This document shows, in pieces, positions 26,891-62,345 of a DNA stretch of 64,000 nucleotides. The DNA is from Ostreococcus lucimarinus. Its lineage: Eukaryota. Made by a program: the position numbers and the translations under genes. Numbering within the stretch: position 1 is the first letter of the stretch; every line of letters starts with the position of its first letter. The stretch lies in the NCBI GenBank assembly GCA_000092065.1, contig CP000595.1; one strand, 5' to 3'. The notes beneath the pieces are model-generated. The model did no database searches. It saw nothing but the letters and a program-made list of their open reading frames with translations, and was not told the DNA's origin.

Positions 26891-29800
26891 GTGAATCCCG
26901 GAATGTCGCCCCCCACGCTCGACGCCGCGCTTCGTCGCAACGCACGCGAGCGCCCGAGCGCCATCGCGTGCGTCCTCGTCCCGAACGCGCGCGAGAAGAA
27001 CCGAAAGTGCTTCTTCACTTGGGACGAGTTACACGGCGTCGTCGACGCCCTCGCGCGCGTCTTGCGCGCCGACCGCCATCCGCGCGTTCTGAGCTTTTGT
27101 CGCGACGGCGTCGAGGCGTTCGTGGCGCTGCACGCGTGCGCGCGGGCGCGGAAGAGTTTGGTGAACGTGGACGCGGCGACGCCGGCGAGCAGGATTCGGG
27201 ACGTCGCGCGGGACGCGAACGCGACGACGTGTCTGTGCGCGAACGACGGCGATGAAGACTCGGTAAAATCGGTGTTAGGAGAAGACGGTGTCGCGGTGCG
27301 CGTGTGGGAGGTGATTAATGCGGGCGCGGAGGCGATCGAGGCGGAAGAGGACGAGACGCGAGAGGACGACGAAATTTGGATTGCGTACACGAGCGGGACG
27401 ACGGGAAAATGCAAGGGCGCCGCGGCGACGCATCGACGCGCGATGGCGTACGCACGGGCGAAGTGTGAGGTGGAAGAGATCGACGCGTGCTCGCGGGTGT
27501 GCTTGGCGTCGAACGCGACGTTCGATTTGTGGCACGGCGACGCGTGCGCGGCGGCGGCGGCGGGCGCCGCCGTCGTCGTCGCGTCTCGCGCGACTTTTCA
27601 ACACGATTTCGCGAGAGTGTTGCGAGAGGGCGAAGTCACGCACGTGTGTTGCACGCCGACGATGTTCTCGCTGGCGCGACTTCCGCGTGGGATCGTGGAC
27701 GCACCGAAGTTGCGATGCGTATCGCTGGCGGGGGAGCGCATGCGCGAGAGCACAATCGCACTATGGGCCGACGACGTGGCGTTGTACAACGTGTACGGTG
27801 CCACGGAAACGACTGTGGTGCAAACGTACGCAAGAATGCGCAATGCAGAAGACGAAAGCACGAATCGGGCGGGGAAAGCGTACGAAGGATTTGCCAGCGT
27901 GTTCGTCGTGGATGAAATGCGCGAAGGCGAATTGGCGGTGCAATCCTTCGCGCAGAGACGCGGCGTCGAAGGCGAAGTTGCCATCGGCGGTATTTGCGTC
28001 GCAGACGGGTATTTGAACGACCCCGAACGCACGGCACGTGCGTTCGTTCACTCACCATTCGGTACCGTCTATCTCACGGGCGATCGCGGGTACATCGATG
28101 ACGCAGGCGATTTGTATTTGCGCGGTAGACTCGATCGCCAAGTCAAGATTCGCGGTCATCGCGTCGAGTTGGATGAAATCGAAGCCGCGCTTCGTTCGTG
28201 CCCCGCACTATGCGACGACGCCGTCGTGTTCTACGATGCCAATGAGGGAGTGCTGACTTCCCACGCACGAGCAGCTTCGCCGACGTTCGACGCGTCGAGC
28301 GATGCAGATTTATACGCGTTCGCGCTCGAACGCGTCGTCGAGCTACGATTGCCGCGACACATGGTGCCTCGTCGACACGTCTTCATCGAGCACGCGCGAT
28401 GGCCTTTGACTTCGAGTGGAAAAACGAATCGTCAGATACTGCTTCAATGGTTTGCGAGCGGCGAGACGAAGGCGTTTCGACCTAAGCGTGAGAAACCGCA
28501 AGCGGGATTGGAAACAGTCGTCGCGAACGCTTGGGCTGTCGCGCTGGGGCACGGCGACGCGAGCGATATCGGCGCCCTCGACGCGTTCGATGCGCTCGGT
28601 GGAACCTCACTCAACGTTCTCGCAGTTTCAAAAGCGCTGGCGAGCGACGACGGAATCGTGCGCTCGCGCGATACCGCGCGTGGCGAAATTGTGCGCGAAG
28701 CGCGAATTGGTTTACGCGACGGCGAAGCTGCGGCGCTGCTCAACGACGGCGAAGAACCCGCGGCGTGCGCGTTCGACGTCATCGACGGCCCGTTCGCACC
28801 GTGCGAAATATTCGCGAGACCCGTGCTTCGCGATTACGTTGATTATTTGCGAGCGCAAGGTATAGACGCCGACGTGAACGCTCCCGCGTCCACCGCCGTC
28901 GAGCCACAGCGAGATACATCTGCGAATCGTCGCATGCTCGCGGCGTGCGGTCGCGGCGTCGCCCCCGTCGTTCGCGCTTTGCTCGCGACCGGCGTCGAAG
29001 CATCGGGCGAGCACCTTCGAGCCGCCGCCGCGAGCCTCGCCGACGAAGCCGTGGACGTAGTGCAAACTTTACTCGCCGCCGGTGCGGATGCAAGTTCATC
29101 ATCCGCCACAGCCGGTACGCTCGCGACGCACGTCGCCGCCGCTCGCGGGAACTCTGAAATGTTAGAAATGTTGCTCGCCGCCGGCGCTCCAGCGGGAGCG
29201 AAGGACGCGGATAAGCAAACGATTTGTCACTTAGCAGTGCGGAGCGGGGATGTGAGTACCGTGCGCGTCGCGGCAAACGCGTGTAAACACTTGAAGACAC
29301 GCAAAGGTGGCTTGGAGTCGTGGGATCGTTGGAAGCGCACGCCCGCAGCGTGGGCGCTCGTCGCGGGATCGAGTGAAATTTTAGCCGAGTTGCGAGATGC
29401 CGGGGCGAATTTAACATCGCTTGAAACTGACGTCTCCAACGCCTGGGTGCACGGTTCGCTGAGCGCAAAGAGCGAGGTGCAGTTGGCGCATCGCCCGGTT
29501 CGCAAGCGAGGTGCCGCGGCGGAGGTGTTGAGCGCGCTCGCGGCTAGATTGGACGCCGCAAACGTCGAGAGCGAACGTATTGAAGCGGCGACGGCGATTC
29601 GCGAGCTCGTGTGCGCAAACGCAGAGAATCGAGAAAAGGCGCGAACGATCGGTTTGGTGCCAAAACTGTGCGAACTCGCGCGCGATCGTCACTGCGTTGA
29701 AGCCATCGGCGCGTTGAGAAATTTAGCCACCAACACGAGCGCGGCAGGGGCGGCTGGCGACGCCGGAGCTATGGAAATCCTCGGTGATGTCATTCGCGCT

Positions 29801-29977
29801 CGTGCTAAATTAAAAGACAGCGAGCTGAGTGCTGACGATAGGCGAGTAGTGTACGCTGCGGCGAGCGCGATGCGCGCGTTGGCGGTGAAGCACGACGCGA
29901 ATGCCGCGCGATTGCGCGCGTCGAGAGACGTCGCGGACGTCGTCAGTCGATTGTGCGAAGGCATGCGATTAGAGTAG
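26891..29977 (+). CDS. NRPS-like adenylation (AMP-binding) plus carrier-protein didomain enzyme with C-terminal ankyrin and armadillo-like repeats
   Basis: IAYTSGTTGKCKG (A3 core), YLTGDRGYIDDAGDLYLRGRLDRQVKIRGHRVELDEIEAAL (A7/A8 cores), FDALGGTSLNVLAVSKAL (phosphopantetheine-site-like GGxS), then ANK repeats (THVAAARGNSEMLEMLLAAGAPAGAKDADKQTICHLAVRSGD) and an ARM-like tail. Confidence 0.75.
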   Translation: MNPGMSPPTLDAALRRNARERPSAIACVLVPNAREKNRKCFFTWDELHGVVDALARVLRADRHPRVLSFCRDGVEAFVALHACARARKSLVNVDAATPASRIRDVARDANATTCLCANDGDEDSVKSVLGEDGVAVRVWEVINAGAEAIEAEEDETREDDEIWIAYTSGTTGKCKGAAATHRRAMAYARAKCEVEEIDACSRVCLASNATFDLWHGDACAAAAAGAAVVVASRATFQHDFARVLREGEVTHVCCTPTMFSLARLPRGIVDAPKLRCVSLAGERMRESTIALWADDVALYNVYGATETTVVQTYARMRNAEDESTNRAGKAYEGFASVFVVDEMREGELAVQSFAQRRGVEGEVAIGGICVADGYLNDPERTARAFVHSPFGTVYLTGDRGYIDDAGDLYLRGRLDRQVKIRGHRVELDEIEAALRSCPALCDDAVVFYDANEGVLTSHARAASPTFDASSDADLYAFALERVVELRLPRHMVPRRHVFIEHARWPLTSSGKTNRQILLQWFASGETKAFRPKREKPQAGLETVVANAWAVALGHGDASDIGALDAFDALGGTSLNVLAVSKALASDDGIVRSRDTARGEIVREARIGLRDGEAAALLNDGEEPAACAFDVIDGPFAPCEIFARPVLRDYVDYLRAQGIDADVNAPASTAVEPQRDTSANRRMLAACGRGVAPVVRALLATGVEASGEHLRAAAASLADEAVDVVQTLLAAGADASSSSATAGTLATHVAAARGNSEMLEMLLAAGAPAGAKDADKQTICHLAVRSGDVSTVRVAANACKHLKTRKGGLESWDRWKRTPAAWALVAGSSEILAELRDAGANLTSLETDVSNAWVHGSLSAKSEVQLAHRPVRKRGAAAEVLSALAARLDAANVESERIEAATAIRELVCANAENREKARTIGLVPKLCELARDRHCVEAIGALRNLATNTSAAGAAGDAGAMEILGDVIRARAKLKDSELSADDRRVVYAAASAMRALAVKHDANAARLRASRDVADVVSRLCEGMRLE

Positions 29978-30014: not shown

Positions 30015-33000
30015 TTAGCAAATTTGCGCACGCGTTTGAAGCAAGACGATGCGATCGCCCACGACGGCGCCTTCGATGTCTTGCGGCGAGCCTCGATAGC
30101 TCTCCACCGACTTGGCGATGTCGGAGATTCGTCTAATCATCGCTTCGCGCGCGAGGGAGTTCCACACGATAGACGACGCGGTGTAGTCCACCACGCGTTC
30201 TTCCGTAGGCTCGGCGGTGATGCTGTCGTAGAGACCAGCGCCGGCGAAATTTTCCAAGTCTTCACCGTTCGAGTCGCTTCTCGCGATGACGGTACCGCCG
30301 GATGGCGCAAAGTGCCCGCAGAGCTTACTCGGAAGCGAACGAAGCGTGACCTCACCCGTTGTCTTGCTCACCGTAAATCCGAGCGCACTACCAGCGTCGT
30401 TACCGACCAAAGTTTCCCCGAGACCGACGCAAATCTCACCAAAGATTTCATCCGCGTCGCCGGTGACAGGGTTGGCGGTGTGCACCACGAAGGCGAATTC
30501 GGCGTCCACGAGTTCCATGAGAAGCACGGCGACGTTGAGATCCTTGTCGTCGATGCCGCAGGATTTACGCGACAACCACGCACGCTCTGTCCATTTTGAC
30601 GCCCATACACCGCAAACGGCGTCCCAGAGTCGCGGGAGGTCGACGGATGGTGAAAGCTTCGCCGCCGCTTCGTCGAGCGCGGATTCCAAACCTTGCGGGC
30701 ACACGAGACGGGTGGCGATGATTTCTCGCGCATCCGCGAGCGCCGCACGGCGGTCTTCGGCGGTAGTCGCTGTCTCAATGGCGGCAACGGCTGCTTCGAG
30801 CGCAGTACGAGTGTCGACGTCTTCCTCGAGGGCGCGTTCAAAGGTGCCAAATGGAAGCGCGTACGATCCTGGCACGTCGACGTTCGCAATGTTCATTGCG
30901 GCGAGTTCCTTGGCCATTTCCGAAAGACTGTTGCTCTTGCCGCCGACAATATCGCTGCTGTACGCGTCAGGAGTAATCAGCCACGCGTCAGAGGGCTTGT
31001 AAGGGGCGATAGACACCTTGGTCGTCGCCTTGGCGCTCGCCGTCGTCGTCGCGTCGGAGACGTTGGCTTTATCAATCTGCACATCTTCACCCGCGATAGA
31101 GAATCGCACGTTTTCACCCGCCATCTCTAGGACTTTGTTCCAAAGTACGTCATCTGCGACGCTCGCGAGAAGCACGTTCGTGTTTCTCGCTCGAATGGCG
31201 ATGTGACTGAGCAGATCGACCGGCGCCTTGGTGACGACGGCCTTGACGCCCGCGGGAATGTCTTCCAACCCACCGAGCGTTTCGGTGAAGCAAACCATGG
31301 GAGTGGACGAAAAATCTTCGCCTTGAATCTCACTGAGCGTTTGAACTTTCGCCATCCCGGCGTACGTCTCGAGGCTGGCGTCGCCGACGCTGACAATTTG
31401 CCAAGGCGAGCGACCCGCGGCGGCTCGAACCGCCGGACGAAGCGTCGAAATCAATTGCGAGACGACAAACAGGCTGTGTGAGCGCACGTTTTCTTCCCCA
31501 AAGTTGATCAAGTACTTGGGATCAGCCTTGGTGGACTTAGACGCGATGATATCTGCAGCGTTTTGCGTAGCGCGGCACAAAAAGTCCATATCGCTCTCCA
31601 TGGCGAGAGCGCAGAAATCGAGCGCGGCGTCCATGGTCTTCGACCAGTCCGCGCCCCAGCGTTCGCCGTGACCGTCACCCATGGCGACTTGGAGAAATTT
31701 TAAGCCCTCGCCGATGCGCGTGGACTCGTTCGTCAGCGCGACGTTCGTCAAAGAAAGCTCGAGAAGCGAAAGCAAATCATCCGAGGACATTGCGCCGTAA
31801 TCGACGGCTTCCACCTTGGTTCTGAAAAACTTTTCCAACGTCGCGTCGAGCATGACGACGTCTCGGTTCGGGCTGTCGTGTTGCCAAACTCCGAGAAGCT
31901 TCTTACGAACTTCGATAATTTTCCCCGGCACCCACCACGCGTCGCGGTTTTGCAGCAAATCGTCCACCTCCCACGCCAAGTCGCCGGGCAAACCGTTTCT
32001 GGCAAAGTTCATGGCGCTGTCCACGTCCCCGCCCGAGTGCGTGGTCTTTAAAACCCACAAGTAATGTTTGAAAGAATCGATCATTTGCGGCATGTGGAAC
32101 GCGGGGCCGTGGATGCCGTCCGAGCGCCAACCCGCCTTCATACCGGCCAAATCTTCTCGCGTCAAGCCGGCGTTATCCCACAAGTGCGCCCAGAAATCGT
32201 CCCAGTTACCGGTGTGCAAAAAGTGCAGGTATGCCTCGCAAATCTTCACATCATCGGGCGTGGTGTTAGAGTGAAGCTTTTGATGCCACTGCGCGATGAA
32301 CGGATCCTCGATTCCCGGACGATGTCCCTCTTTGATGCCGTGCGTTCGCATGATGTTCAAGATGCCCATGCGAATATCGTCGCCGTTGCCTCCTCCGCGC
32401 GGTAAGAATGCGAGCGAGGCGCGCATGAGTCCGCGCGACGTGGCGTCCGGCGCCGTCGTCGCCGCGTGCGCGATGCGTCCCGCCAAGCGCTCTTGCTTGC
32501 TCGCCATGTCCTTGCCCTGGTAATTGTTCCCGGCGTACCAGTGCAACTGGCGCAGCGAGCTCAGGCGCAACCACGCGTAGACGAGCGCCGCACCCTCGGG
32601 CCCGATCGCCAACGCGGCGTCCAGGGCGTCGTCAACCATGCAAAATCGCGTGAACAAGTTCACGCTCCCACCCTCGTGCTCGGCGGCGCGTCGCGCCAAC
32701 GATTCCGCGCCCGCCGCGCCGCCGCCGCCGCCCGCCGCGGATTCTCTCACCCTCATCTCCACGTCCCCGTCCTCCGCGTGCGCCCAAAACTCTCCGCACA
32801 CGACGATCCCGACGATCGACCCAACGTTTCTCAACCCCTCGACGTCCCCTTCGCTCGCGTTCGAGCAATCCATCTCCAACGTCAGCGTCCCGCTCGCGTC
32901 GAACGCGCTCCTCGACGCGATCCCGTCCCCGAAATCCCTACTCCCCGTCCTCGCCTCCAGCCCGCGCGGCGCCTTCGCCCACGACCCATCGCCATCGACC

Positions 33001-33374
33001 GCCCGCGTCGCCCAGTGCAGTTCGACCTCGCCTCTCGCGCACCGCTCCAGGAGCGCGTCGTCCGCCGCCCGCAGCGTCGCCGTCGTCGTCCCGTTCGCGC
33101 GCGTCCGCGTCTCCACTCGCACCGCGTGCCCCCCCGCGAGCGCGTGCGTCGTCTCGCGGACCACGTCCGGGACGTCCGCCTTTTTTTCGCGCGCGCCGGC
33201 GCCTCGTCCGACGCGCGCGCGCGTCCCGGCGTCGATCGCGCCGCGCGCCGTGGATAGCGTTCCTCGCGAAGATCGCGTCGCGCGGCGCGCCGTCGCGCGG
33301 TCGATCGTCGCGCGCGCCGCGTCCGCGCGCGCGAACGTCGCGCGCGTCGCGTCGCGCGCGAGAGAGACGCGCAT
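30015..33374 (-). CDS. GWD: Alpha-glucan water dikinase (GWD/PWD family starch phosphorylating enzyme) with an N-terminal transit-peptide-like region
   Basis: Phosphohistidine motif LLSHIAIRARNTNVLLASV. The C-terminus SPQDIEGAVVGDRIVLLQTRAQI matches the GWD SPQDIEG...VVQTRPQ end. The 1119-aa ORF has an R/A/T/S-rich N-terminus. Confidence 0.85.
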   Translation of the reverse strand: MRVSLARDATRATFARADAARATIDRATARRATRSSRGTLSTARGAIDAGTRARVGRGAGAREKKADVPDVVRETTHALAGGHAVRVETRTRANGTTTATLRAADDALLERCARGEVELHWATRAVDGDGSWAKAPRGLEARTGSRDFGDGIASRSAFDASGTLTLEMDCSNASEGDVEGLRNVGSIVGIVVCGEFWAHAEDGDVEMRVRESAAGGGGGAAGAESLARRAAEHEGGSVNLFTRFCMVDDALDAALAIGPEGAALVYAWLRLSSLRQLHWYAGNNYQGKDMASKQERLAGRIAHAATTAPDATSRGLMRASLAFLPRGGGNGDDIRMGILNIMRTHGIKEGHRPGIEDPFIAQWHQKLHSNTTPDDVKICEAYLHFLHTGNWDDFWAHLWDNAGLTREDLAGMKAGWRSDGIHGPAFHMPQMIDSFKHYLWVLKTTHSGGDVDSAMNFARNGLPGDLAWEVDDLLQNRDAWWVPGKIIEVRKKLLGVWQHDSPNRDVVMLDATLEKFFRTKVEAVDYGAMSSDDLLSLLELSLTNVALTNESTRIGEGLKFLQVAMGDGHGERWGADWSKTMDAALDFCALAMESDMDFLCRATQNAADIIASKSTKADPKYLINFGEENVRSHSLFVVSQLISTLRPAVRAAAGRSPWQIVSVGDASLETYAGMAKVQTLSEIQGEDFSSTPMVCFTETLGGLEDIPAGVKAVVTKAPVDLLSHIAIRARNTNVLLASVADDVLWNKVLEMAGENVRFSIAGEDVQIDKANVSDATTTASAKATTKVSIAPYKPSDAWLITPDAYSSDIVGGKSNSLSEMAKELAAMNIANVDVPGSYALPFGTFERALEEDVDTRTALEAAVAAIETATTAEDRRAALADAREIIATRLVCPQGLESALDEAAAKLSPSVDLPRLWDAVCGVWASKWTERAWLSRKSCGIDDKDLNVAVLLMELVDAEFAFVVHTANPVTGDADEIFGEICVGLGETLVGNDAGSALGFTVSKTTGEVTLRSLPSKLCGHFAPSGGTVIARSDSNGEDLENFAGAGLYDSITAEPTEERVVDYTASSIVWNSLAREAMIRRISDIAKSVESYRGSPQDIEGAVVGDRIVLLQTRAQIC

Positions 33375-33516
33375 CGCGCGCGCGCGCGTCGTCGGTCGCG
33401 GTGTGACGATTCGCTTCGACGAATCGAATCGTCAGAGCGCGACGCCGCGCCGCGCGGACGCGTCGACGCGCGGCGCGACGCGACGGCGACGCGCGCGGTC
33501 CTCCGCGGCGTTTCGC

Positions 33517-33726
33517 ATGTGCGGCGCGTGCCGCGCGCGGCGCGCGAGCGCGAGAGAGACGACGACGCGCGCGGAATTCTGCGCGCCGTGTCGCGACGGC
33601 GCGAGAGCGACGACGACGCGCGCGACGCGCGTCGCGGACGGGGCGTCGTTCGACGTCGTCGTGTGCGGCGCGGGCGCGGCGGGGACGTCGTTCGCGCGGA
33701 CGTACCTGGAGACGACGGCGCGGGGT

Positions 33727-33766
<40 letters not shown>

Positions 33767-35241
33767 CGCGCGGCGCGAGGCTGCTGCTGCTCGATCGCGG
33801 CGGATGCGCGAAGACGGTCGAGCGCGTGGAGCGCGTGACGCGGCGGGCGTCGGTGTACGGCGCGCGGGAGAGCGCGCTGGGGGCGCTGGAGGCGCTGGGG
33901 GCGCGGACGGCGACGGCGAGCGTCGCGGCGTGCGACGCCGAGTCGAAGACGTTGACGCTGGACGACGGCGCGCGCGTGCGGTACGGCGCGCTGTGCGTCG
34001 CCACGGGGGCGACGCCGCGATGTCCGCTGCCGGAGGCGAGCGATGGAGCGGTCGACGCGCACGAGGTGCGAGACGTGGAGAGCGCGGACGCGCTGGCGAG
34101 ACGGTTGAGCTCGATGACGGCGACGGCGAGCGCGGATTCGGATTCAAAGACGAAACGGATCGCGATCGCGGGGAACGGAGGGATCGCGCTCGAGCTCGTC
34201 GACGCGCTCTGTGTGCGAGGTTTGCGCGCGCGAGGGTTGGAGGCGTGCGAATTGGTGTGGTTGGTGAAACACGGCGAAGTCGGCGACGCCTTTTTCGACG
34301 TCGACGCCGCGGATTTCTTGCTGCGCGCGCTCGACGCGAGACGGCGAGACGGCGAGGCGAAAGACGACGACGGCGCGGACGTGGACTGGGACTCACCGAC
34401 GCCCGAACGCGGTGCCGGACGATCGACGAAGAAGCGCGCGCGAGGGCGCGAATCAGGCGCCGCCGCCGGTCCGGATTGGCTCGACAGATTTAGAGCGAAG
34501 AGCGCGGCGGACGACGCGCGCGCGCCTCTCAGCCGCATGAAGCTTCGCGTGCTGAAAAATGTGTGCATACGCGAAGCGCGTAAAGACGCAAACACCGGCG
34601 TCAACGTATTGACGCTGAGCGATGGGACGACGATCGAGGTGGACGCCGTCGTCGCCGCCGCGGGCGTCGAGCCGAGATGCGATTGGCTCGACGAAGTCGC
34701 CGCGCCGAGGTCGAAATCAGACGGCGGTATACTCGTCGATGCGTGCATGCGCACCGTAGGACCGTACGGCGACTCAATATTTGCCGTCGGCGACGCGTGC
34801 ACGATGTCGGCGCGCGCGTCGAACCCAGAGACGCCGTGGTTTCAAATGCGACTGTGGAGCCAGGCGGCGCAAACAGGCGCCTTCGCCGCGAAAGTCGCCG
34901 TGGGCGTCTGCGACGCCGACGCCCTCGGATTCAATTTCGAAATCTTTACCCACGTCACCAGGTTTTTCGGTCTCAAAGTCATCTTGCTCGGGCTGTACAA
35001 CGCCCAGAAGCTCGACGACGTCCCGGCGAACGAGGTGACGACGTACCAGCGCGAGTCGCTCGCCGACGCGACGTACGTGCGCGTGCTCCTCGTCCGCGGT
35101 CGCATGATGGGCGCCGTGCTCGTCGGCGACACCGATCTCGAGGAAACTTTCGAAAACCTAATCTTAGACGGCGTCGATCTATCGCGTTTCGGTCCGAGTT
35201 TACTCGATCCCGAGCTCGACTTGGAGGATTATTTCGACTGA
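33517..35241 (+). CDS. PYROXD1: PYROXD1-like FAD/NAD(P)-dependent pyridine nucleotide-disulfide oxidoreductase, copy A
   Basis: FDVVVCGAGAAGTSFA Rossmann motif, IAGNGGIALELV, GPDW and VGDACTMS. The C-terminal RGRMMGAVLVGDTDLEETFENLILDGVDLSRFGPSLLDPELDLEDYFD matches the conserved PYROXD1 C-terminus. It carries a (GD)6 insert encoded by (GGCGAC)6. The start is taken at the first Met inside the repeat, because upstream ORF sequence is antisense to GWD. Confidence 0.8.
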
Positions 35242-36283: not shown

Positions 36284-37702
36284 TTAGTGCGCGTGCCCGT
36301 GCGAGTGGCCGCCGCCGCCGCCGGCTGTGCAGTGCTTGTGGTTGAGGAGCACGAGACTGACGGCGACGACGCCGACGACGAACGTCAAGAGGCTCGCCGC
36401 GCGAAGACGAGACGTAGTGGCGCTCACCGAAACTCGCGGCATACACTCCGCGGCAGCGATTTGTAGATAGATTCCAGCGCCAAAGGCGAGCAAAAGTCCG
36501 TGCCAGAAGTCGTTGTTACTTCCAGATCCAACGCTGATGAGAACGCCGAGGATGACGCTCACGCCGGAGATGAAGTTCATGAACAGCGAGCGAAACGGCG
36601 TGAGATCGCCCTGGAAGGGATCCGTGAGTACCAAATAGTCGGCGAGCTCTTGCGCGATTTCGTGATAGACGGTCGCGGCGGTGATCGACCATCCCATGGT
36701 CTTTCCACAGTTCAGGAAACCGAATCCGATGAAGATGCCATCCACGAGGTTGTGCATGAAATCTCCGAGGATGATGCCGCTTCGAACGCGATACTTGTGC
36801 GAGTGGCACGTTTCGCAATCTTCTTGAACGCCTTTGATCGCGTTCTCCGCGTCGATCGTCTTCGTCTCGGCTAAACGAGAAGGGAACGCGATGGAGATGC
36901 CCAAATCGATGATGTACGCCACGAGAAAGCCAAAGACGGACGCGGACGCCCACCACGCGGTTTGTTGCGACTCATCCGAACCGGCGGGTTTGATCAAATG
37001 CGTGGCTTCGTACAACATCAGATAGAACGCAGCCGAAAGAAGTGCACCGGCGGCAAAGGAGTTAATGATGCAACTCACGAATTCGGGGTACGCTTTCTGC
37101 TTCTTCGCGAAGCTCGGAGAGAGAAAGATGACGCCGGAAAGCGTGACGATGTTGACGATGATCGCCGCCCCGATGGCGTCGGACCACGGTTTTGATTTCT
37201 TTGTAGTCACCGTTTCGGGAAGCGAAGCCACTGGCTCCACGTCATCCCCGTTGACATCCTTGAGATAGTGCGTATCGCGCTCGAACTCGGTGGGAACGTG
37301 CTCGGCGAAAATCGAGACGGCGGCGACGCCAGTCGTATCAATCTTAAACGACGACGTGTGCCAAGCGTTATCAAATTGAAGTTTGACGCATCCACTCCCG
37401 GGCGTCAAAACGCTGTTTCGCGTTTTAACCGTCGTGCACGCCGTCTCGAGCGCGGCCTCGCCCGCGTCCTCGCGAGCCTCGAGCTCTTCGTGTCCGGCGG
37501 CGGTTTCGGCGTAGATGACCATCTTCATGGTCGCGTCCGCGTACTGGTCCTTCACCTTTTCCGCCTGCCACACGTACGCATCGTCCGGAGTCTCAAAGAT
37601 CCCCGCCCATTCGAACGAGTGCGCGTGCGCGCCGGACGCGAGCGCGCCGCGCGCCGCGAGCGCGCTCGAGACGACCGCCGCGCCTCCGAGCGCGGCGCCC
37701 AT
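36284..37702 (-). CDS. ZIP family (LIV-1/KE4-like subfamily) zinc/metal transporter
   Basis: HEIAQELADYLVL (HExPHExGD motif), GDFMHNLVDGIFIGFGF, a C-terminal His-rich GGGGGHSHGHAH tail, and the signal-peptide-like MGAALGGAAVVSSALAARGALASGAHAHS. The start is chosen at that Met. Upstream in-frame Mets exist. Confidence 0.8.
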   Translation of the reverse strand: MGAALGGAAVVSSALAARGALASGAHAHSFEWAGIFETPDDAYVWQAEKVKDQYADATMKMVIYAETAAGHEELEAREDAGEAALETACTTVKTRNSVLTPGSGCVKLQFDNAWHTSSFKIDTTGVAAVSIFAEHVPTEFERDTHYLKDVNGDDVEPVASLPETVTTKKSKPWSDAIGAAIIVNIVTLSGVIFLSPSFAKKQKAYPEFVSCIINSFAAGALLSAAFYLMLYEATHLIKPAGSDESQQTAWWASASVFGFLVAYIIDLGISIAFPSRLAETKTIDAENAIKGVQEDCETCHSHKYRVRSGIILGDFMHNLVDGIFIGFGFLNCGKTMGWSITAATVYHEIAQELADYLVLTDPFQGDLTPFRSLFMNFISGVSVILGVLISVGSGSNNDFWHGLLLAFGAGIYLQIAAAECMPRVSVSATTSRLRAASLLTFVVGVVAVSLVLLNHKHCTAGGGGGHSHGHAH

Positions 37703-37943
37703 CCTCCATCCGCCTCCTCGTCGTCGTCGTCGTCGTCCCGCGCCCGCGGTCGCGTCTCGCGTCGTCATCGCGTCGCGCATCGTCTCGTCTATCGTCTCGT
37801 GCATCGTCTCGTTCGTCGTCGTCGTCGTCGTCGCGCGTCGTCGAGTGCGGCGACCGCGCGCGCCGGCATCGCGACGAGACGACTCGAACCGGCGCGAGGG
37901 GGGTACTTCTCGAGTCATGACTCGATATTCATGAGAACACCAT

Positions 37944-38850: not shown

Positions 38851-40167
38851 GTGCCCACGATGATCGCGCGTGTCGACACGAACAGACGGTTGGCCGAAAA
38901 GGCGAAAGGGTCGGCGGCTGTCGTCATCTCTCGACGAACGTTGGCGCTCGACATGGCGGACGAGCAAGACCAGACCTCGCGCGTGCCGGTGACCATTCTC
39001 ACCGGATTTCTCGGTTCCGGGAAGACGACGCTCCTCAATGAAATCTTGGAATCCGAAACGCACGGATTGCGCTTCGCGGTGATTGAAAATGAATTCGGAG
39101 AGGTGGGCGTCGACGAGAGGATTCTGTCGGAGAAGGCGGACGAAGAGATCATCGAGGTCATGAACGGTTGCATCTGCTGCACGGTGCGCGGTGATCTCGT
39201 GGTGGCGCTGAAAAAGCTCTACTCGAAGATCGCGCAGTTCGACGCCGTCATCATCGAGACGACGGGTTTGGCGGATCCGGCGCCGGTGGCGCAGACGTTC
39301 TTCGTCGACGATGACATTCGAGAAAAGTTTGTGCTCGACGGAATCATCACGGTCACGGACGCGAAGCACATCCTCACGCGGCTCGATGATGAAAAACCCG
39401 AGGGTGTGGAGAATGAAGCCGCCGAACAGGTCGCTTTTGCCGATCGGATACTCCTCAACAAGACCGACTTGGTGTCCGAAGACGAACTCGAAACCATCAC
39501 GGGCCGGATCAAGCAAATTAATCCGAGCGCCGATATCTTCCGATGCCAGTATTCCAAGGTTGATCCGAAAAATTTGATCGGAATCAATTCCTTCTCGCTC
39601 GAGAAGACCTTAAAAATGGATCCCGAATTCCTCAACACGGAGGGCGAGCATGAACACGACCCAACCGTGTCTTCGACGAGCACAAAATTCTCTGGGCACC
39701 TCAACATCAATAAATTAGAACGCTGGATAGGCGAAATAATTCAAACAATGGGTGCGGACTTGTTTCGGTACAAGGGTGTTCTTTCCGTTGCGGGCATGGA
39801 TCAAAAGTTTGTTTTCCAGGGCGTCGGCATGCTTTTCTCCGGCGGCTTCGTCGACGCCAAGTGGGGAGCCGACGAGGAGCGCGAATGCCGCTTCGTCTTC
39901 ATCGGTAAAAATCTGGACAAAGACGCCCTCATCAACGGTTTCATGGATTGCAAGTGTTCCTCGAAGCTTCGCTTCAAGGTGGGCGACGCGGTTCTCGCGC
40001 AGGTGGGCGCCGCCGACAACGACGGCTACTGCCGCGGCACCGTCCGTAAGACGTGGGACTCGGGCAACCCGTACCAGATCGAACTTGAAGACGGTAAAAA
40101 GACAAAAGTGTGGGGACCCGTCGACGAAGACGAGTTCGTCAAAGCTTCGCTCAGCGCCACCGCGTAA
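38851..40167 (+). CDS. COG0523/CobW-family GTPase (ZNG1-like zinc metallochaperone family)
   Basis: ILTGFLGSGKTTLLNEIL (P-loop), GCICCTVRGDL (CxCC metal motif), DAVIIETTGLADP and a CobW_C-like C-terminus. An exact ZDRE GTGTCGACAC at 38870-38879 lies inside the first annotated codons, so the true start is probably the Met at 38953 (MADEQDQTSRVPVTILTGF). Confidence 0.8.
   Translation: MPTMIARVDTNRRLAEKAKGSAAVVISRRTLALDMADEQDQTSRVPVTILTGFLGSGKTTLLNEILESETHGLRFAVIENEFGEVGVDERILSEKADEEIIEVMNGCICCTVRGDLVVALKKLYSKIAQFDAVIIETTGLADPAPVAQTFFVDDDIREKFVLDGIITVTDAKHILTRLDDEKPEGVENEAAEQVAFADRILLNKTDLVSEDELETITGRIKQINPSADIFRCQYSKVDPKNLIGINSFSLEKTLKMDPEFLNTEGEHEHDPTVSSTSTKFSGHLNINKLERWIGEIIQTMGADLFRYKGVLSVAGMDQKFVFQGVGMLFSGGFVDAKWGADEERECRFVFIGKNLDKDALINGFMDCKCSSKLRFKVGDAVLAQVGAADNDGYCRGTVRKTWDSGNPYQIELEDGKKTKVWGPVDEDEFVKASLSATA
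38870..38879. promoter_or_regulatory. ZDRE-type motif GTGTCGACAC at the 5' end of the COG0523 gene
   Basis: Exact match to RTGTCGACAY. It is 74-83 bp upstream of the alternative start at 38953. Confidence 0.5.
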
Positions 40168-40317
40168 ATGTCGTTTTGTATGAAATCAAATCAAAATTTT
40201 GACCAGTCATGAACCTTCGTGTACACACTCCTCCTTTAGCGCGAACACACACGCATAGTATAGATACAAAAAGACAAGGTAAAACCCATCCAACGCACTC
40301 GCACCGGCTCGCCGGCT

Positions 40318-40492
40318 CGCCTCGTCCGACGCGCGCGCGCGTCCCGGCGTCGATCGCGCCGCGCGCCGTGGATAGCGTTCCTCGCGAAGATCGCGTCGCG
40401 CGGCGCGCCGTCGCGCGGTCGATCGTCGCGCGCGCCGCGTCCGCGCGCGCGAACGTCGCGCGCGTCGCGTCGCGCGCGAGAGAGACGCGCAT
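40318..40492 (-). pseudogene. Duplicated 5' fragment of the GWD gene: promoter-proximal sequence and the first 57 codons, with no downstream GWD sequence
   Basis: ORF 40151-40492 begins MRVSLARDATRATFARADAARATIDRATARRATRSSRGTLSTARGAIDAGTRARVGRG, identical to the GWD N-terminus. It diverges at the repeat edge and runs antisense into the last 17 nt of the COG0523 gene. Confidence 0.7.
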
Positions 40493-40634
40493 CGCGCGCG
40501 CGCGCGTCGTCGGTCGCGGTGTGACGATTCGCTTCGACGAATCGAATCGTCAGAGCGCGACGCCGCGCCGCGCGGACGCGTCGACGCGCGGCGCGACGCG
40601 ACGGCGACGCGCGCGGTCCTCCGCGGCGTTTCGC

Positions 40635-40844
40635 ATGTGCGGCGCGTGCCGCGCGCGGCGCGCGAGCGCGAGAGAGACGACGACGCGCGCGGAATTCTGC
40701 GCGCCGTGTCGCGACGGCGCGAGAGCGACGACGACGCGCGCGACGCGCGTCGCGGACGGGGCGTCGTTCGACGTCGTCGTGTGCGGCGCGGGCGCGGCGG
40801 GGACGTCGTTCGCGCGGACGTACCTGGAGACGACGGCGCGGGGT

Positions 40845-40884
<40 letters not shown>

Positions 40885-42359
40885 CGCGCGGCGCGAGGCT
40901 GCTGCTGCTCGATCGCGGCGGATGCGCGAAGACGGTCGAGCGCGTGGAGCGCGTGACGCGGCGGGCGTCGGTGTACGGCGCGCGGGAGGACGCGCTGGGG
41001 GCGCTGGAGGCGCTGGGGGCGCGGACGGCGACGGCGAGCGTCGCGGCGTGCGACGCCGAGTCGAAGACGTTGACGCTGGACGACGGCGCGCGCGTGCGGT
41101 ACGGCGCGCTGTGCGTCGCCACGGGGGCGACGCCGCGATGTCCACTGCCGGAGGCGAGCGATGGAGCGGTCGACGCGCACGAGGTGCGAGACGTGGAGAG
41201 CGCGGACGCGCTGGCGAGACGGTTGAGCTCGATGACGGCGACGGCGAGCGCGGATTCGGATTCAAAGACGAAACGGATCGCGATCGCGGGGAACGGAGGG
41301 ATCGCGCTCGAGCTCGTCGACGCGCTATGTGTGCGAGGTTTGCGCGCGCGAGGGTTGGAGGCGTGTGAATTGGTGTGGTTGGTGAAACACGGCGAAGTCG
41401 GCGACGCCTTTTTCGACGTCGACGCCGCGGATTTCTTGCTGCGCGCGCTCGACGCGAGACGGCGAGACGGCGAGGCGAAAGACGACGACGGCGCGGACGT
41501 GGACTGGGACTCACCGACGCCCGAACGCGGTGCCGGACGATCGACGAAGAAGCGCGCGCGAGGGCGCGAATCAGGCGCCGCCGCCGGTCCGGATTGGCTC
41601 GACAGATTTAGAGCGAAGAGCGCGGCGGACGACGCGCGCGCGCCTCTCAGCCGCATGAAGCTTCGCGTGCTGAAAAATGTGTGCATACGCGAAGCGCGTA
41701 AAGACGCAAACACCGGCGTCAACGTATTGACGCTGAGCGATGGGACGACGATCGAGGTGGACGCCGTCGTCGCCGCCGCGGGCGTCGAGCCGAGATGCGA
41801 TTGGCTCGACGAAGTCGCCGCGCCGAGGTCGAAATCAGACGGCGGTATACTCGTCGATGCGTGCATGCGCACCGTAGGACCGTACGGCGACTCAATATTT
41901 GCCGTCGGCGACGCGTGCACGATGTCGGCGCGCGCGTCGAACCCAGAGACGCCGTGGTTTCAAATGCGACTGTGGAGCCAGGCGGCGCAAACAGGCGCCT
42001 TCGCCGCGAAAGTCGCCGCGGGCGTCTGCGACGCCGACGCCCTCGGATTCAATTTCGAAATCTTTACCCACGTCACCAGGTTTTTCGGTCTCAAAGTCAT
42101 CTTGCTCGGGCTGTACAACGCCCAGAAGCTCGACGACGTCCCGGCGAACGAGGTGACGACGTACCAGCGCGAGTCGCTCGCCGACGCGACGTACGTGCGC
42201 GTGCTCCTCGTCCGCGGTCGCATGATGGGCGCCGTGCTCGTCGGCGACACCGATCTCGAGGAAACTTTCGAAAACCTAATCTTAGACGGCGTCGATCTAT
42301 CGCGTTTCGGTCCGAGTTTACTCGATCCCGAGCTCGACTTGGAGGATTATTTCGACTGA
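40635..42359 (+). CDS. PYROXD1: PYROXD1-like oxidoreductase, copy B
   Basis: Identical to copy A apart from two amino-acid substitutions noted on inspection (E/D and V/A). Confidence 0.8.
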
Positions 42360-47348: not shown

Positions 47349-48980
47349 TCACCGCGGTTCCACGGATGGCGTCGAGAGAAGCGTTTCGCGAAGCGTCGGA
47401 AACGCGTCGACGCACAGAGCGCGGTGCGTCGGCCAGGATAACCTCTGACACGCGGATGAACAGTAAATCTCGCTTTTGCATCGCGCGCAGCGTTTCGGCG
47501 ACGTCGTCAGACGGAAACATCCCGCGCACGTCTTCGGCTTTCGAGGAAGCTGGGCAAGATCGAAGTGCCGCGCACAGAGCGCAGAGGCGGCACCGATGGC
47601 GCTCGCGATGTCTGCGTCGGTGTCTCGTTCGCGCGTGCCTAAAACGTCGCCTCTTTCGATCGGGTCGGGCCATGATCGATGTTTTCGGGGTGTGTCGATG
47701 CTCGCCGCGAGAAGCGCCTCGCCAGATTGGCCGTCATTGTCGACGATTTCCCTCACGACGCGGATGACATCGAACTCTTTCAAAACTTCGAGCGCCTCTG
47801 TCGCGTTGCGATGACACGCCCAGTGGTACGCCGTACGCCCGCGCGAATCGACAAGTGCGGTGAGTTTCGCCGGATCTTTCGCTCGTCGTAAAATCATTCG
47901 AGCCAGCGGCGCGTTGGAGTGCGCGCACGCGAGCATCAACAACGTTTGCCCGCTCGAACACCGCACTTCGTCGTCTCCGTCGTTCTCATGCGCATCGAGT
48001 GCGAATGTCATCAACTTCATGCGGCTCGCGAGCATCTCAGTGGCGCGTCCTGGTTGTCTGACGGCGTCGCGAGTCATGCTATCCGCGAGATAGTGCACGG
48101 GCAACCACCCGTGGGGTCTACAACGCACGTTCAAGTCGCCGCCGGCTGCGCACAGAGCTTCTACCGTTCGTAGCTCTACTCCGAATCCGAAAGCCGTGTG
48201 AAGCGCGAAATCGTCCACCCTGATACCCGGGGTTCGCAAGAGCGCTTCTACGATAGAATGCCGGCCGATCCTGCAAGCATGCTGAAGCACGCTGCCGTGC
48301 GCTCCCTTCGCGTTGACATCGGCGCCAAGGTGTATCAGAAACTCGACAAAATCCACATCTTGTCTACCATCGATCGCGTACATCAGCGGCGTCCTCTGAA
48401 GACTATCTCTGCGATTGACGACGCATCGCGCCGATTCGAACGGTTGCCGATTTCCGACGAACGCCGCGACGTGCGACGTCGATCGGTCGGCGTCCCCTAC
48501 TTCATCCAATATACTTTCGATCCACGTCTCATTCCATCGATCTATATCCATCGCAAACGTTGCGTTCGCGATGCGTCGACGAACGGGCGACCCGATCGTT
48601 TTCTCGCCGTCGGCGAGTCGCATCAAGATGTCACATCGTTGCCATCGCGCCGCGCAATCCACTAAATGAATCTGCTTCGACGGCGTGTTCGCGGCCCTCA
48701 CGACCGTCTCAACGATCATATCGGATGTTTTTGCGTCGCAGCACACGAGCATGGCGGCGGAAACACCGATGGGTGAGACTTTGAACGCGTCGCAACCGTT
48801 CGCGAGCAACCACAGCGTCGTGCTCGGCGAGGCGAAGGGAGAGAGCACAGAAACGGAAAGCGCATCAAGGCCATCCACGCACGCCAGCGCGGGATCGATC
48901 TTCCCTTCCAACGACAGCGCTATGACGTCGTCCAACTGGTCGTGATAAACCGCGATGAGGAAGATTTTATTGATGGACAT
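47349..48980 (-). CDS. Ankyrin-repeat protein with a C-terminal MYND zinc finger
   Basis: ANK repeats (TPLMYAIDGRQDVDFVEFLIHLGADVNAKGAHGSVLQHACRIGRHSIVEALL) and MYND CAGCFRLTTSPKRCARCKSEIYCSSACQRLSWPTHRALC. Confidence 0.75.
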   Translation of the reverse strand: MSINKIFLIAVYHDQLDDVIALSLEGKIDPALACVDGLDALSVSVLSPFASPSTTLWLLANGCDAFKVSPIGVSAAMLVCCDAKTSDMIVETVVRAANTPSKQIHLVDCAARWQRCDILMRLADGEKTIGSPVRRRIANATFAMDIDRWNETWIESILDEVGDADRSTSHVAAFVGNRQPFESARCVVNRRDSLQRTPLMYAIDGRQDVDFVEFLIHLGADVNAKGAHGSVLQHACRIGRHSIVEALLRTPGIRVDDFALHTAFGFGVELRTVEALCAAGGDLNVRCRPHGWLPVHYLADSMTRDAVRQPGRATEMLASRMKLMTFALDAHENDGDDEVRCSSGQTLLMLACAHSNAPLARMILRRAKDPAKLTALVDSRGRTAYHWACHRNATEALEVLKEFDVIRVVREIVDNDGQSGEALLAASIDTPRKHRSWPDPIERGDVLGTRERDTDADIASAIGAASALCARHFDLAQLPRKPKTCAGCFRLTTSPKRCARCKSEIYCSSACQRLSWPTHRALCVDAFPTLRETLLSTPSVEPR

Positions 48981-59675: not shown

Positions 59676-61166
59676 CTAGTGCGCGTGCTCGACGCCGAGT
59701 TGCGCGAGCGCGATGACGAGAACGCCGGCGGTGTAACACACGAACTTGTAAATGCGCATGCCGCGCGCGGGCGCTTCGTGCACGGTGTGCGTGTGCGGAG
59801 CGAGTTTATGGTCGTGACCGTGCTCGTCTTCGCACGATTGCGTTTGCGTCTCGAACTCGTCGCCGATGACTTCCACGGTACCGACGTAAATGAACGTACC
59901 GGCGGCGATGCCCTCGAGGACGGCGGAGACGGCTGGGCTGTGTGCGCTTTCCGCCGCGCACCCGATCAAGATCCCGATCGGGGTTATGAACGAAAACGCC
60001 GTCATGAAAATGAAGAGCGTCTGCGGATTCGTCATGCCGCAGCGCAAAAACGCGCACCCGATGCTGAACGCGGCCGCGGCTTTGTGCGACGCGATGGCGG
60101 TGAAAATCGCGTACACACTGTTTCGATCGCTTTGAAGCCCGAGGGAGACACCCGCGAGAGAGGCGTGCAACGCGACGCCCGCCATGAAGAGCAAAGCCGT
60201 TCTCGTCTGCGCGAAGATGGACACGTGACGACCCTTCTCGTCGTGCGCGCACGTGTCGCACGCGTCGGTCGACGCCTTGTCCACGACGACGACGACGGCC
60301 GCATCGACGTGATGTTCTTTACTTTGTCCGTGTCCGTGTCCGTGTCCGTGGCCGTGCTCTCCGTCGCCCTCGCTCTCCGTCACGTGCGAGTGCGTGTGAA
60401 ACACGACGCGTTCGACGAAGAACGCGATGAGAAATCCCAGCATGACCATGACCATGGCGAAAGGATACTCCTTCGCCGTACCGATGCGTGCCTCCGTCGC
60501 GCTCTCGAGCGCGTGCGGGACGAGGTGCACGAACCCAGACGCGAGAAACAATCCCCCGCTGAACGCGTTCATAAACTCCAACGCGCTCTGCATCTTCGGC
60601 AGCGTTCTCACGAACAGCGACGGCAACATTCCTCCCGCCAAACCTTCAAAAAACACAGCCACCATGAGACCCATCTTGAGTTTGAAATGCTTCAACCCAC
60701 CCGTCGCCGCCGCCGCGCTTTCCGCCTCGCTCGCGATGAACGTGCACGTCGACTCGCTCAGGCACCGCGCCGCCAAACTCAGCGCCGAGAGCAACTCGGT
60801 CTCGTTCAACTTTTGATCCGCGCCCGCGTACGTCGTGATCACGTCCGCCGACGACACGTTCGTCAGCGTCTCCTCCGCGCTCGCGTGCGCGTGTCCAGCG
60901 CTCGCGTGCGCGTGTCCAGCGTGCGAATCCGCGCCCGCGCCCGCGCCGCTCGTCCTCGCCGCGAACCGCTCGAACAATTCGCTCAGCTCGTGAGCGTCCA
61001 TCGTCGCGTCGTCGTTGTCGTCGTTGTACGTCTCCAAGATGTGATCCACCGGCGTCTCGTCGCCTCTCGCGACGCGCGCCATCGCGCACGCGCACGCGCA
61101 CACCGTCAGCGCCGTCGCGAATCGCGCGCGCGCCCGTCGACACCGCCGCCGGTCGTTCGCCGTCAT
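59676..61166 (-). CDS. ZIP family zinc/metal transporter with a His-rich loop
   Basis: FFEGLAGGMLPS, HGHGHGHGHGQSKEHH loop, HKAAAAFSIGCAF, GIAAGTFIYVGTVEVIGDEF. The start is taken at MTANDRRRC (ATG complement at 61166-61164). The 1118-aa track ORF is inflated by stop-free antisense sequence of the LHC gene. Confidence 0.8.
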   Translation of the reverse strand: MTANDRRRCRRARARFATALTVCACACAMARVARGDETPVDHILETYNDDNDDATMDAHELSELFERFAARTSGAGAGADSHAGHAHASAGHAHASAEETLTNVSSADVITTYAGADQKLNETELLSALSLAARCLSESTCTFIASEAESAAAATGGLKHFKLKMGLMVAVFFEGLAGGMLPSLFVRTLPKMQSALEFMNAFSGGLFLASGFVHLVPHALESATEARIGTAKEYPFAMVMVMLGFLIAFFVERVVFHTHSHVTESEGDGEHGHGHGHGHGQSKEHHVDAAVVVVVDKASTDACDTCAHDEKGRHVSIFAQTRTALLFMAGVALHASLAGVSLGLQSDRNSVYAIFTAIASHKAAAAFSIGCAFLRCGMTNPQTLFIFMTAFSFITPIGILIGCAAESAHSPAVSAVLEGIAAGTFIYVGTVEVIGDEFETQTQSCEDEHGHDHKLAPHTHTVHEAPARGMRIYKFVCYTAGVLVIALAQLGVEHAH

Positions 61167-61398
61167 CTTGTCTCGCGCCGTCGCGAATCGCGCGCGCGTC
61201 GAGTCCCGGTCTCGACGCCCGCGCCCGGTTCGCCCCGGTTCGAGCGCGCGCGAACGAGCCGAAGAGGCGTCGCGAAGTGCGGCGATGCGCGCGCGTCGTG
61301 CACGTGTCGACGATTCGCGTCGTGCACGTGTCGAGGATCGTCGTACGCGACGCCCCGCGAAGCCCATCACGGATCGCGTCGCGACGCGCGTCGTAAAC

Positions 61399-61556
61399 AT
61401 GTCGACACGCATGTCGACATATTTACCCACGCGCGTGTACGCATTGAACCCCGTGATGCATCTATATACGAAAAACGTCTCGACGCACATGTCGACATAT
61501 TTACCCCACGCGCGTGTACGCATTGAACCCCGTGATGCATCTATATACGAAACAGA
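61399..61556. promoter_or_regulatory. Tandemly repeated ~78-bp element (about 2.2 copies) carrying three exact ZDRE-type motifs, in the divergent promoter between the ZIP gene (minus) and the LHC gene (plus)
   Basis: ATGTCGACAC at 61399-61408 and ATGTCGACAT at 61411-61420 and 61489-61498. The repeat unit gtcgacatatttacc(c)cacgcgcgtgtacgcattgaaccccgtgatgcatctatatacgaaa starts at 61413 and 61491. It lies 233-392 bp upstream of the ZIP ATG. Confidence 0.65.
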
Positions 61557-61626
61557 TAAATGCACGAAATACACGGTGGTAAACAGACCCCGAATGCGAT
61601 GCGCACGGACGTTCGAGCGCGCAAAA

Positions 61627-61678
61627 AGCGCGATCGAGCGAGCGATCCGATCCGCGCGCGATCGCTCGCTCGATCGCG
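61627..61678. promoter_or_regulatory. Perfect 20-bp inverted repeat (hairpin) with a 12-nt spacer, immediately upstream of the LHC start codon
   Basis: gcgcgatcgagcgagcgatc at 61627-61646 and its exact reverse complement gatcgctcgctcgatcgcgc at 61659-61678, 38 bp before the ATG at 61716. Confidence 0.6.
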
Positions 61679-61715
61679 CGCGTCGCCACACGCCGACGAC
61701 GCGCGCGCACTCGCG

Positions 61716-61853
61716 ATGTTCAAGACGAAAGCCCCCGCGCCGAAGACGGCGGTGAAGAAATCCGCGCCGGCGAAGAAGGCGCCGGCGAAGAAGGCGCCGG
61801 CGAAGAAGGTCGCGGCGAAGAAGGCGCCCGTTCGCAAGGCGGGCGACGACGAG
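61716..61853 (+). CDS. Putative exon 1 of a light-harvesting chlorophyll a/b-binding protein gene, Lys/Ala/Pro-rich (tentative)
   Basis: MFKTKAPAPKTAVKKSAPAKKAPAKKAPAKKVAAKKAPVRKAGDDE followed by a GAG|GTGCGA donor. Joined in phase to the next exon through a tag|CTC acceptor at 62259/62260. There is no classic transit peptide, so the assignment is uncertain. Confidence 0.35.
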
Positions 61854-62259: not shown

Positions 62260-62345
62260 CTCTGGCGTCCGGGTGCCGTGCGACCGGCGTGGTTGGATGG
62301 CTCTCTCCCGGGTGACCGTGGATTCGATCCGTTCAACTTGTCCAA
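62260..62345 (+). CDS. LHC exon encoding the conserved N-terminal motif
   Basis: [29 protein letters not shown] matches the LHC N-terminal WLPG...LDGSLPGD(F/Y)GFDPLGL consensus. An in-frame TAG lies just upstream (62257-62259), so it must be an internal exon. A GTGCGT donor is at 62346. Confidence 0.6.

Follow-up and report, generated by a model that had tools for sequence, protein, structure and literature searches.

A single-module NRPS-like protein with a conserved ankyrin–armadillo tail in Ostreococcus lucimarinus and related picoalgae

Within a 64,000 nucleotide stretch of Ostreococcus lucimarinus DNA (contig CP000595.1 of assembly GCA_000092065.1), referred to here as the window, lies a complete and intronless gene of 1024 codons plus stop (26903..29977, + strand), the product of which joins adenylation (A) and carrier, or thiolation (T), domains of the non-ribosomal peptide synthetase (NRPS) kind to a long tail of ankyrin (Ank) and armadillo (ARM) repeats. 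We think it probable, if only by a little, that this enzyme charges itself with an alpha-amino acid, which a partner docked on the tail then removes; the loading is well supported by the sequence, and the off-loading is the part that we infer. An earlier note on this DNA had described such a fusion in an open reading frame (ORF) at 26891–29977 (+). That ORF is present and the gene is real, but its true start is the first in-frame ATG, at 26903, which gives a protein of 1024 amino acids, and the GTG at 26891 is an artefact of a bacterial ORF rule. The gene looks expressed and strongly conserved, and it is already in the databases as an uncharacterized protein: the product is 100% identical to XP_001421631.1 (ABO99924.1; UniProt A4S8J0) of O. 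lucimarinus CCE9901, in keeping with the green-algal host that the note had supposed, and its annotation there reads 'predicted protein' only.

A search covering 5.8 billion proteins returned 39 clusters of relatives with the same architecture, 1000–1150 amino acids in length and at 38–60% identity, followed only by fragments of bacterial condensation–adenylation–thiolation NRPSs at about 30%; a condensation domain occurs in every bacterial relative from this search and in no member of the family. Every full-length relative retains the fusion, and no complete tail-only or tail-less gene was seen, the apparent 'stand-alone tails' proving on alignment to be contig-end or frameshift fragments. 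The 150 matches listed in a search with a full-length family profile consisted of six family representatives and giant multi-module bacterial NRPSs, with summed A-domain scores of more than 1000 bits. Conservation is described below from an alignment of the window protein with 39 related sequences (39–58% identical to it), and invariant positions refer to a non-redundant set of 21 sequences.

The A domain occupies residues 1–520 (26903..28462, +), with an N-terminal core at about 1–420 and a C-terminal subdomain at about 421–520, and contains core motifs A1–A10. Residues 10–371 match the Pfam AMP-binding family PF00501 with 168 bits against a cutoff of 29.9 (E 4e-49), and the same family is matched in 21/21 orthologues, placing the protein in the ANL superfamily. 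The best NCBIfam match, by 100 bits, is the amino acid adenylation domain model TIGR01733 (259.8 bits, E 4e-77, 404 of 409 model positions), and the best matches among solved structures are NRPS A-T didomains, those of LgrA (module 2), TycA, SrfA-C and EntF, over residues 38–585. All ten A-domain core motifs are readable, including FTWDEL, YTSGTTGKCKG (A3), FDLW, NVYGATE, GEVAIGG..ADGYL, YLTGD, GRLDRQVKIRGHRVELDEIE (A8), LPRHMVP and SGKTNR (A10), and T163, S164, G165, K171, E302, D394, R409, K415 and R417 are invariant. The A10 catalytic lysine, Lys507 (28421..28423, +; equivalent to GrsA Lys517), stands in an SGKT[ND]R motif that is kept in the window protein and 39/39 relatives. Asp208 (27524..27526, +), located by motif-anchored extraction, is equivalent to GrsA Asp235, which binds the alpha-amino group of the substrate; it is the first residue of the specificity code and is likewise invariant in the family. 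The A3 and A8 cores and the carrier GGTS site are thus as the earlier note had read them, and the residues on whose loss that reading would have foundered (the A10 lysine, the core motifs and the carrier serine) are retained: the residues of A3, A5, A7 and A8 are conserved, and Lys507, Asp208 and Ser569 show no substitution in the window protein or in any of its 39 relatives.

Extraction of the specificity code had been recommended in the note; its ten positions, located by anchoring on the flanking core motifs, read DLGCSAVVVK here and, over the family as a whole, D-[LIP]-[GS]-C-[STA]-[AIG]-[AV]-V-[VLF]-K. As a control, the same columns in 989 bacterial A domains hold Asp in 99% and Lys in 97% of cases and recover canonical codes, the commonest being DFWNIGMVHK, DVWHFSLVDK, DAFWLGGTFK, DVGEIGSIDK, DAWTIAAVCK and DILQ.GL.WK, which are assigned to Thr, Ser, Val, Orn, Phe and Gly respectively; since these are textbook codes, the columns are correctly read. 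DLGCSAVVVK itself matches no code that we could assign, and the closest of the 733 distinct bacterial codes, DAGCSGVVWK (7/10), comes from an unannotated domain; any likeness to Tyr-type codes that have small residues is at most tentative. The invariance of the alpha-amino-binding Asp (the 235 position) and of the A10 Lys (the 517 position) indicates that the substrate is an alpha-amino acid. The pocket residues are all small or aliphatic and uncharged, suggesting a roomy neutral pocket, and because small uncharged residues line it our guess would be a substrate with a large neutral side chain.

These features also bear on whether the protein might be an ordinary acyl-CoA or fatty-acid ligase to which unrelated repeat domains have become attached. 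Such ligases belong to the same ANL superfamily, and the Joint Genome Institute names several family members 'acyl-coenzyme A synthetase/AMP-(fatty) acid ligase'. However, the amino-acid adenylation model scores 260 bits against 135 bits or less for any CoA-ligase model (the second-best NCBIfam match being DltA, at 159 bits), the alpha-amino-binding Asp is invariant, and next to the A domain comes a carrier domain whose Ser never varies. We consider a CoA ligase very improbable, and it is the only alternative that is clearly disfavoured.

The carrier domain (residues 530–655; 28490..28867, +) was recognized by PF00550, by alignment with peptidyl carrier proteins (PCPs) and in the structural model, where it forms four helices (536–548, 569–580, 635–638 and 642–651) with a long interrupting loop. 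Its motif aligns with the PCPs of LgrA, SrfA-C and EntF, and PF00550 is matched at E<=0.1 in 16/21 orthologues (best 4.4e-5). Ser569 (28607..28609, +), in DAFDALGGTSL, is the predicted site of phosphopantetheine attachment, the Ser of the GG[TNS]S motif being invariant in the window protein and 39/39 relatives. The distance from this serine to the Pro of helix III is 66–80 amino acids in the family, compared with 26–27 in 97% of 406 bacterial carrier motifs. This spacing defines an insertion at residues 583–628 (28649..28786, +) in the loop between helices II and III, modelled with a predicted local distance difference test score (pLDDT) below 50; the insertion, of about 45 residues, is by this comparison of sequences a new feature specific to the family. 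Its distal part and the adjoining helix III form the most conserved segment of the whole protein, residues 603–640 (28709..28822, +), with the motifs GLxDGEAAALL, DEPAAC (containing Cys622) and GPFAPCEI.ARP (containing Cys634). Mean pairwise identity here is 78% and 39% of columns are invariant, as against 54% and 14% for the adenylation core. E608, L612 and L613 of the carrier loop are invariant across the family; we note that the EAAALL sequence to which they belong (28724–28741, residues 608–613) fits the [DE]xxxL[LI] acidic dileucine consensus of clathrin adaptor complexes, which could easily be coincidence.

The tail begins with five ankyrin repeats at residues 672–846 (28916..29440, +), supported by Pfam, by helix pairs and by fold matches to designed ankyrin repeat proteins (DARPins); Ank_2 scores 47.9 bits against a cutoff of 27.3 (E 2e-12), and Ank_2 or Ank_4 is found in 21/21 members. 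Three to four armadillo repeats follow at residues 873–1017 (29519..29953, +), with conserved Asn909 and Asn940. They are recognized by PF00514 (Arm) in 9/21 orthologues (best 7e-7), by fold matches, and by comparison of a profile of the last 230 residues with the PDB, which finds designed ARM proteins (2e-12), Vac8 (6e-10) and beta-catenin (3e-7), and also APC and importin-alpha. A model of residues 665–1024 (pLDDT 81; predicted template modelling score, pTM, 0.71) is all-alpha and comprises five ankyrin helix pairs, a poorly modelled linker and ten ARM helices; when it is compared with the PDB by Foldseek, engineered DARPin–armadillo fusions come top (E 7e-8), followed by HACE1, designed armadillo proteins and importin-alpha. 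These domain calls, which the earlier note had proposed as a check, give the order that it had described, an NRPS-like A-T unit, then ankyrin, then armadillo repeats. They also agree with it that release domains are lacking: no condensation (PF00668), reductase, thioesterase or other enzymatic family is matched in Pfam at E<=1 in the window protein.

Two short segments of the tail stand out in the family alignment. Between ankyrin repeats 4 and 5 is an extended and nearly invariant finger, TRxGGLExWDRWKRT (29291..29341, +), in which T799, R800, G802, G803, E805, W807, D808, R809, W810 and T813 are invariant, and ankyrin repeats 4–5 as a whole (75% pairwise identity, 37% invariant columns) are second only to residues 603–640 in conservation. 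The basic linker between the Ank and ARM repeats, HGxLSxxSxVQxxxRPxRK (29444..29506, +; pLDDT<50), has H850, G851, S854, Q860, R864, P865, R867 and K868 invariant. The constraint on the tail thus appears, on these identities, to be at least as great as that on the catalytic core (ankyrin repeats 4–5 75%, carrier loop 78%, A core 54%). High conservation together with low model confidence would be typical of segments that fold on a partner.

From these elements we propose the following sequence of events. The A domain of what would be a cytosolic single-module NRPS-like enzyme uses ATP to form an aminoacyl-adenylate, a step for which the sequence support is strong, and the aminoacyl group would then be transferred, within the same protein, to the phosphopantetheine arm that Ser569 of the carrier domain bears, a step that the sequence also supports. 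To attach this arm an Sfp-type transferase from another locus in the genome would be needed; O. tauri and Micromonas are both on record as having group II (Sfp-type) phosphopantetheinyl transferases (PPTases) (PMC4103896). The five Ank and three to four ARM repeats may then dock a partner, either an acceptor or a tailoring or off-loading enzyme, which would accept the tethered amino acid or modify it in trans. The conserved carrier loop and the invariant WDRWKRT finger of ankyrin repeats 4–5 are the best candidates for the hand-over site. Since condensation, reductase and thioesterase domains are missing, there is no known route of release in cis, and it is this, taken with the strong constraint on repeats of the protein- or peptide-binding type, that leads us to favour a docking platform; the retention of the fusion in all full-length relatives, and of Asn909 and Asn940 in the ARM repeats, residues of a kind that grip extended peptides in importin-alpha and beta-catenin, fits with it. 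The suggestion of the earlier note that the tail hands the activated group to an acceptor through protein–protein contacts is therefore a reasonable one, and is the reading that we favour.

Several observations weigh against this proposal. The TIGR01733 score of 259.8 bits falls short of the curated cutoff of 317.4. PF00550 is weak in the window protein (13.3 bits against a gathering cutoff of 20.8, E 0.1), where because of the loop insertion the match spans profile positions 3–41 only, and the residue preceding the carrier Ser is T, N or S in place of the usual H or D. The full-length model has a pTM of 0.50, and the carrier loop, finger and linker all have pLDDT<50, so that no domain–domain contact is readable from the models. 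The gene has different neighbours at the Ostreococcus locus and at the Micromonas-like ones, and none of them encodes a PPTase or a tailoring enzyme. Finally, the repeat domains could equally serve localization or regulation.

The short conserved segments invite a different reading, in which the protein is a self-contained amide or ester synthase resembling Ebony, and the carrier loop, ankyrin finger and linker bind a small-molecule nucleophile that attacks the thioester without any partner protein. Residues 603–640, 797–813 and 848–868 are indeed short and invariant and contain many Cys, Trp, His and Arg residues, which is more what one expects of a ligand-binding or active site than of a generic scaffold, but the fold of the tail is that of ordinary Ank and ARM repeats and shows nothing enzyme-like, and catalysis of acyl transfer by an ankyrin or armadillo domain is not known to us. 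While the C-terminal domain of Ebony is likewise unrecognizable by sequence as a condensation domain (PMC10531068), we regard such a synthase as unlikely.

The ARM repeats raise the question of whether the acceptor is itself a protein. Asn residues such as Asn909 and Asn940 hold extended peptides in importin-alpha and beta-catenin, and ARM repeats that conserve them are typical binders of extended peptides; the Ank-ARM tail, which is strongly conserved, might then bind a target protein or peptide, with the amino acid moving to its amino, hydroxyl or thiol group. In animals, the A-T enzyme ACSF4-U26/AASDH has been suggested to act post-translationally (PMC10531068). Yet no precedent has a demonstrated target, no catalytic residue can be assigned, and the data do not distinguish a protein acceptor from a partner enzyme; a protein-modifying function of this kind is distinctly unlikely. 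Equally doubtful, to our minds, is its most specific form, a non-ribosomal 'writer' that charges itself and transfers the amino acid to a protein or peptide lying in the Ank-ARM groove, with C622, C634 and the WDRWKRT finger as the transfer site.

The linker and the carrier loop could also be fitted to an amino-acid sensor or regulated scaffold, in which charging of the carrier alters the binding of a partner to the tail and the thioester serves as a signal and not as an intermediate; the basic RPxRK linker might in that case occupy the ARM groove as a pseudo-ligand. It is true that this conserved linker lies immediately upstream of repeats resembling those of importin-alpha, and that the carrier loop contains the invariant ExxxLL-type motif (E608, L612, L613), but neither linker nor loop docks confidently in the models, such short motifs easily arise by chance, and we know of no precedent for an A-T sensor. 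This possibility seems to us quite remote.

Named members of the family are all from Ostreococcus, that of O. tauri (CEG00424.1) being annotated merely 'Ankyrin repeat', and the others come from marine or estuarine metagenome contigs with GC contents of 0.44, 0.60, 0.65 and 0.68. We assign these contigs, with some caution, to Bathycoccus-like, Ostreococcus and Micromonas-like lineages, so that full-length relatives would be confined to Mamiellophyceae-like contigs. When the tail alone was the query, the only matches were fragments of this family and, after them, generic ankyrin proteins scoring no more than 79 bits; nothing related to the tail was detectable in these searches outside the Mamiellophyceae-like family, and the viral contigs searched contained no relative of it. 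A more divergent, intron-split relative of the tail was seen on contig L045 (Ga0307489_10004743; locus 178–1948, GC 0.61); it retains the signature motifs, among them that of the finger between ankyrin repeats 4 and 5, with the sequences DADKQTILHLAARSG, GGLEAWDRWKRTAAAW and ALRDIVCANAANR, and the contig ends ahead of the A-T part. Recent horizontal transfer was considered as an origin for the gene and rejected, given that its GC and GC at third codon positions (GC3) match those of its neighbours and that it has 35% identity or less to any sampled bacterial A domain (n=989); its occurrence across contigs of GC 0.44 to 0.69 also weighs against a recent transfer.

The gene has a GC content of 0.63 and a GC3 of 0.70, in line with neighbouring genes. 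Rfam and tandem-repeat scans of the locus found no RNA family and no tandem repeat, and a scan for bacterial-type promoters and terminators found nothing relevant. The earlier note had suggested looking nearby for a 4'-phosphopantetheinyl transferase; neither a PPTase nor a tailoring enzyme was found among the window genes. An equivalent gene model is present on metagenome contig L002, where the pairing with the convergent neighbour recurs; in the window this neighbour (30018–33374, –; 38 bp away) is a glucan or phosphoglucan water dikinase-like gene with GWD1_pHisD and PPDK_N domains. Two Micromonas-like contigs (L001 and L004, GC 0.65–0.68) have in common a conserved block of D27-like, WD40, A-T-Ank-ARM, ribosomal protein S10, Cpn60 and fasciclin genes that is not shared with Ostreococcus, and since these neighbours are absent at the Ostreococcus locus there is no conserved gene cluster.

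The genomic context is also relevant to the idea that the protein is a trans-acting loader, giving an amino-acid starter or extender to the giant algal type I polyketide synthases (PKSs) by docking with them through the repeat tail. Ostreococcus and Micromonas have type I PKSs of megadalton size and no NRPS with a condensation domain (PMC4661987). Against this, chlorophyte megasynthases already have their own N-terminal adenylation or ligase domain (PMC7073580, PMC4661987), and no linkage to a PKS gene was seen at any locus examined. There is moreover a low-GC (0.44) member of the family, which may be Bathycoccus-like, and Bathycoccus is listed as lacking type I PKSs (PMC4661987). A role in polyketide loading is accordingly improbable.

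Other genes in the window were noted in passing. Directly upstream, and ending 160 bp from the A-T-Ank-ARM gene, is a single uninterrupted ORF of 7684 codons (3688–26742, +). Its N-terminal part is Cys-rich and epidermal growth factor (EGF)/teneurin-like, bacterial-Ig-like (Big_9) and ephrin-receptor-like repeats are also present, and an Ion_trans membrane domain stands at the C terminus; the whole has the look of a giant protein of extracellular repeats to which an ion-channel-like module has been joined. A Pyr_redox_2/Rubredoxin_C-type flavoprotein oxidoreductase is encoded twice (~33200–35241 and ~40310–42359, both +), and the two copies, 99% identical (678/682 amino acids), flank a ZIP metal transporter (36287–37918, –) and a CobW/zinc-chaperone-type GTPase (38851–40164, +). 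The flavoprotein pair is a recent segmental duplication around a pair of metal-homeostasis genes, or possibly an assembly artefact. A second and far longer ORF of the ZIP family (59679–63032, –) encodes 1118 amino acids, with the ZIP domain at residues 784–1109. Another ankyrin-repeat protein, with a C-terminal MYND zinc finger, is encoded less than 20 kb from the A-T-Ank-ARM gene (47352–48980, –), in a sequence context that is unrelated to it.

A census of algal NRPSs that counted only those with condensation domains reported none in the Mamiellales (PMC4661987), and it missed this gene because a condensation domain was required. An antiSMASH survey counted two 'Other(A)' loci with A plus carrier domains in O. 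tauri and did not describe them (PMC7073580). Our literature search found no paper citing the family accessions and none pairing 'NRPS-like' with these genera. Given how diverse the NRPS-like genes of eukaryotes are, a specialist would find nothing unexpected in this one.

Single-module A-T enzymes that lack a release domain, such as AASDH in animals and plants and many protist 'NRPS-like' genes, are widespread, and their acceptors are mostly unknown. The present family supplies an example that is compact and without introns, from picoalgae open to genetic work (O. tauri, for instance), and it poses the off-loading question sharply, there being besides the A-T unit only a solenoid of the peptide-binding type and a few invariant short motifs. 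Identifying the partner would make clear what use is made of a thioester-tethered amino acid beyond the classical assembly lines, and whether the Mamiellophyceae, which are major marine primary producers without canonical NRPSs, make an amino-acid-derived metabolite or protein modification that has gone unnoticed. The 'writer' reading, if true, would amount to an undescribed eukaryotic route of protein aminoacylation and provide a working model for the animal enzyme AASDH.

Comparison with known systems places the protein more closely. The tail of AASDH is a PQQ-like beta-propeller, whereas that described here is an all-alpha Ank and ARM solenoid, whose model contains no strands and which matches no propeller family of Pfam; AASDH moreover activates beta-alanine, while the window protein keeps the Asp235 equivalent that is typical of alpha-amino acid activation. 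AASDH (ACSF4-U26) is nevertheless also a eukaryotic single-module A-T protein without condensation, reductase or thioesterase domains, followed by an interaction domain of the repeat type, and a role in modifying another molecule or protein has been proposed for it (PMC10531068). The insect beta-alanyl-amine synthase Ebony likewise consists of A and T domains and a non-canonical C-terminal region in place of a condensation domain (PMC10531068), although in Ebony this region is a compact catalytic domain that selects the amine and here it is made up of repeats without an enzyme fold.

Bacterial stand-alone loaders of the DltA/DltC, SyrB1 and NikP1 types also adenylate an amino acid and tether it to a carrier for proteins acting in trans. 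They obtain their partners through operon co-expression, however, and have no Ank or ARM tail, and DltA has no fused carrier; the window protein also misses the DltA equivalog cutoffs by a wide margin (158.7 bits against 559.85, and 159.5 against 476). Dinoflagellate monofunctional NRPS and PKS domains fused to HEAT, ankyrin or pentatricopeptide (PPR) repeats show a similar theme (PMC6361889) but in a different lineage, the A-T-Ank-ARM order and the carrier-loop insertion being specific to the Mamiellophyceae-like family. The NRPS-like proteins of fungi with A-T-reductase or A-T-thioesterase organization (Lys2, carboxylic acid reductases and ATRR) share the single A-T unit and the absence of a condensation domain, but release their products through a reductase or thioesterase in cis, neither of which is present here. 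By these comparisons the protein belongs to none of these systems; it is a variant within the class of NRPS-like A-T enzymes, set apart by an Ank-ARM tail restricted to its lineage and by its distinctive carrier insertion.

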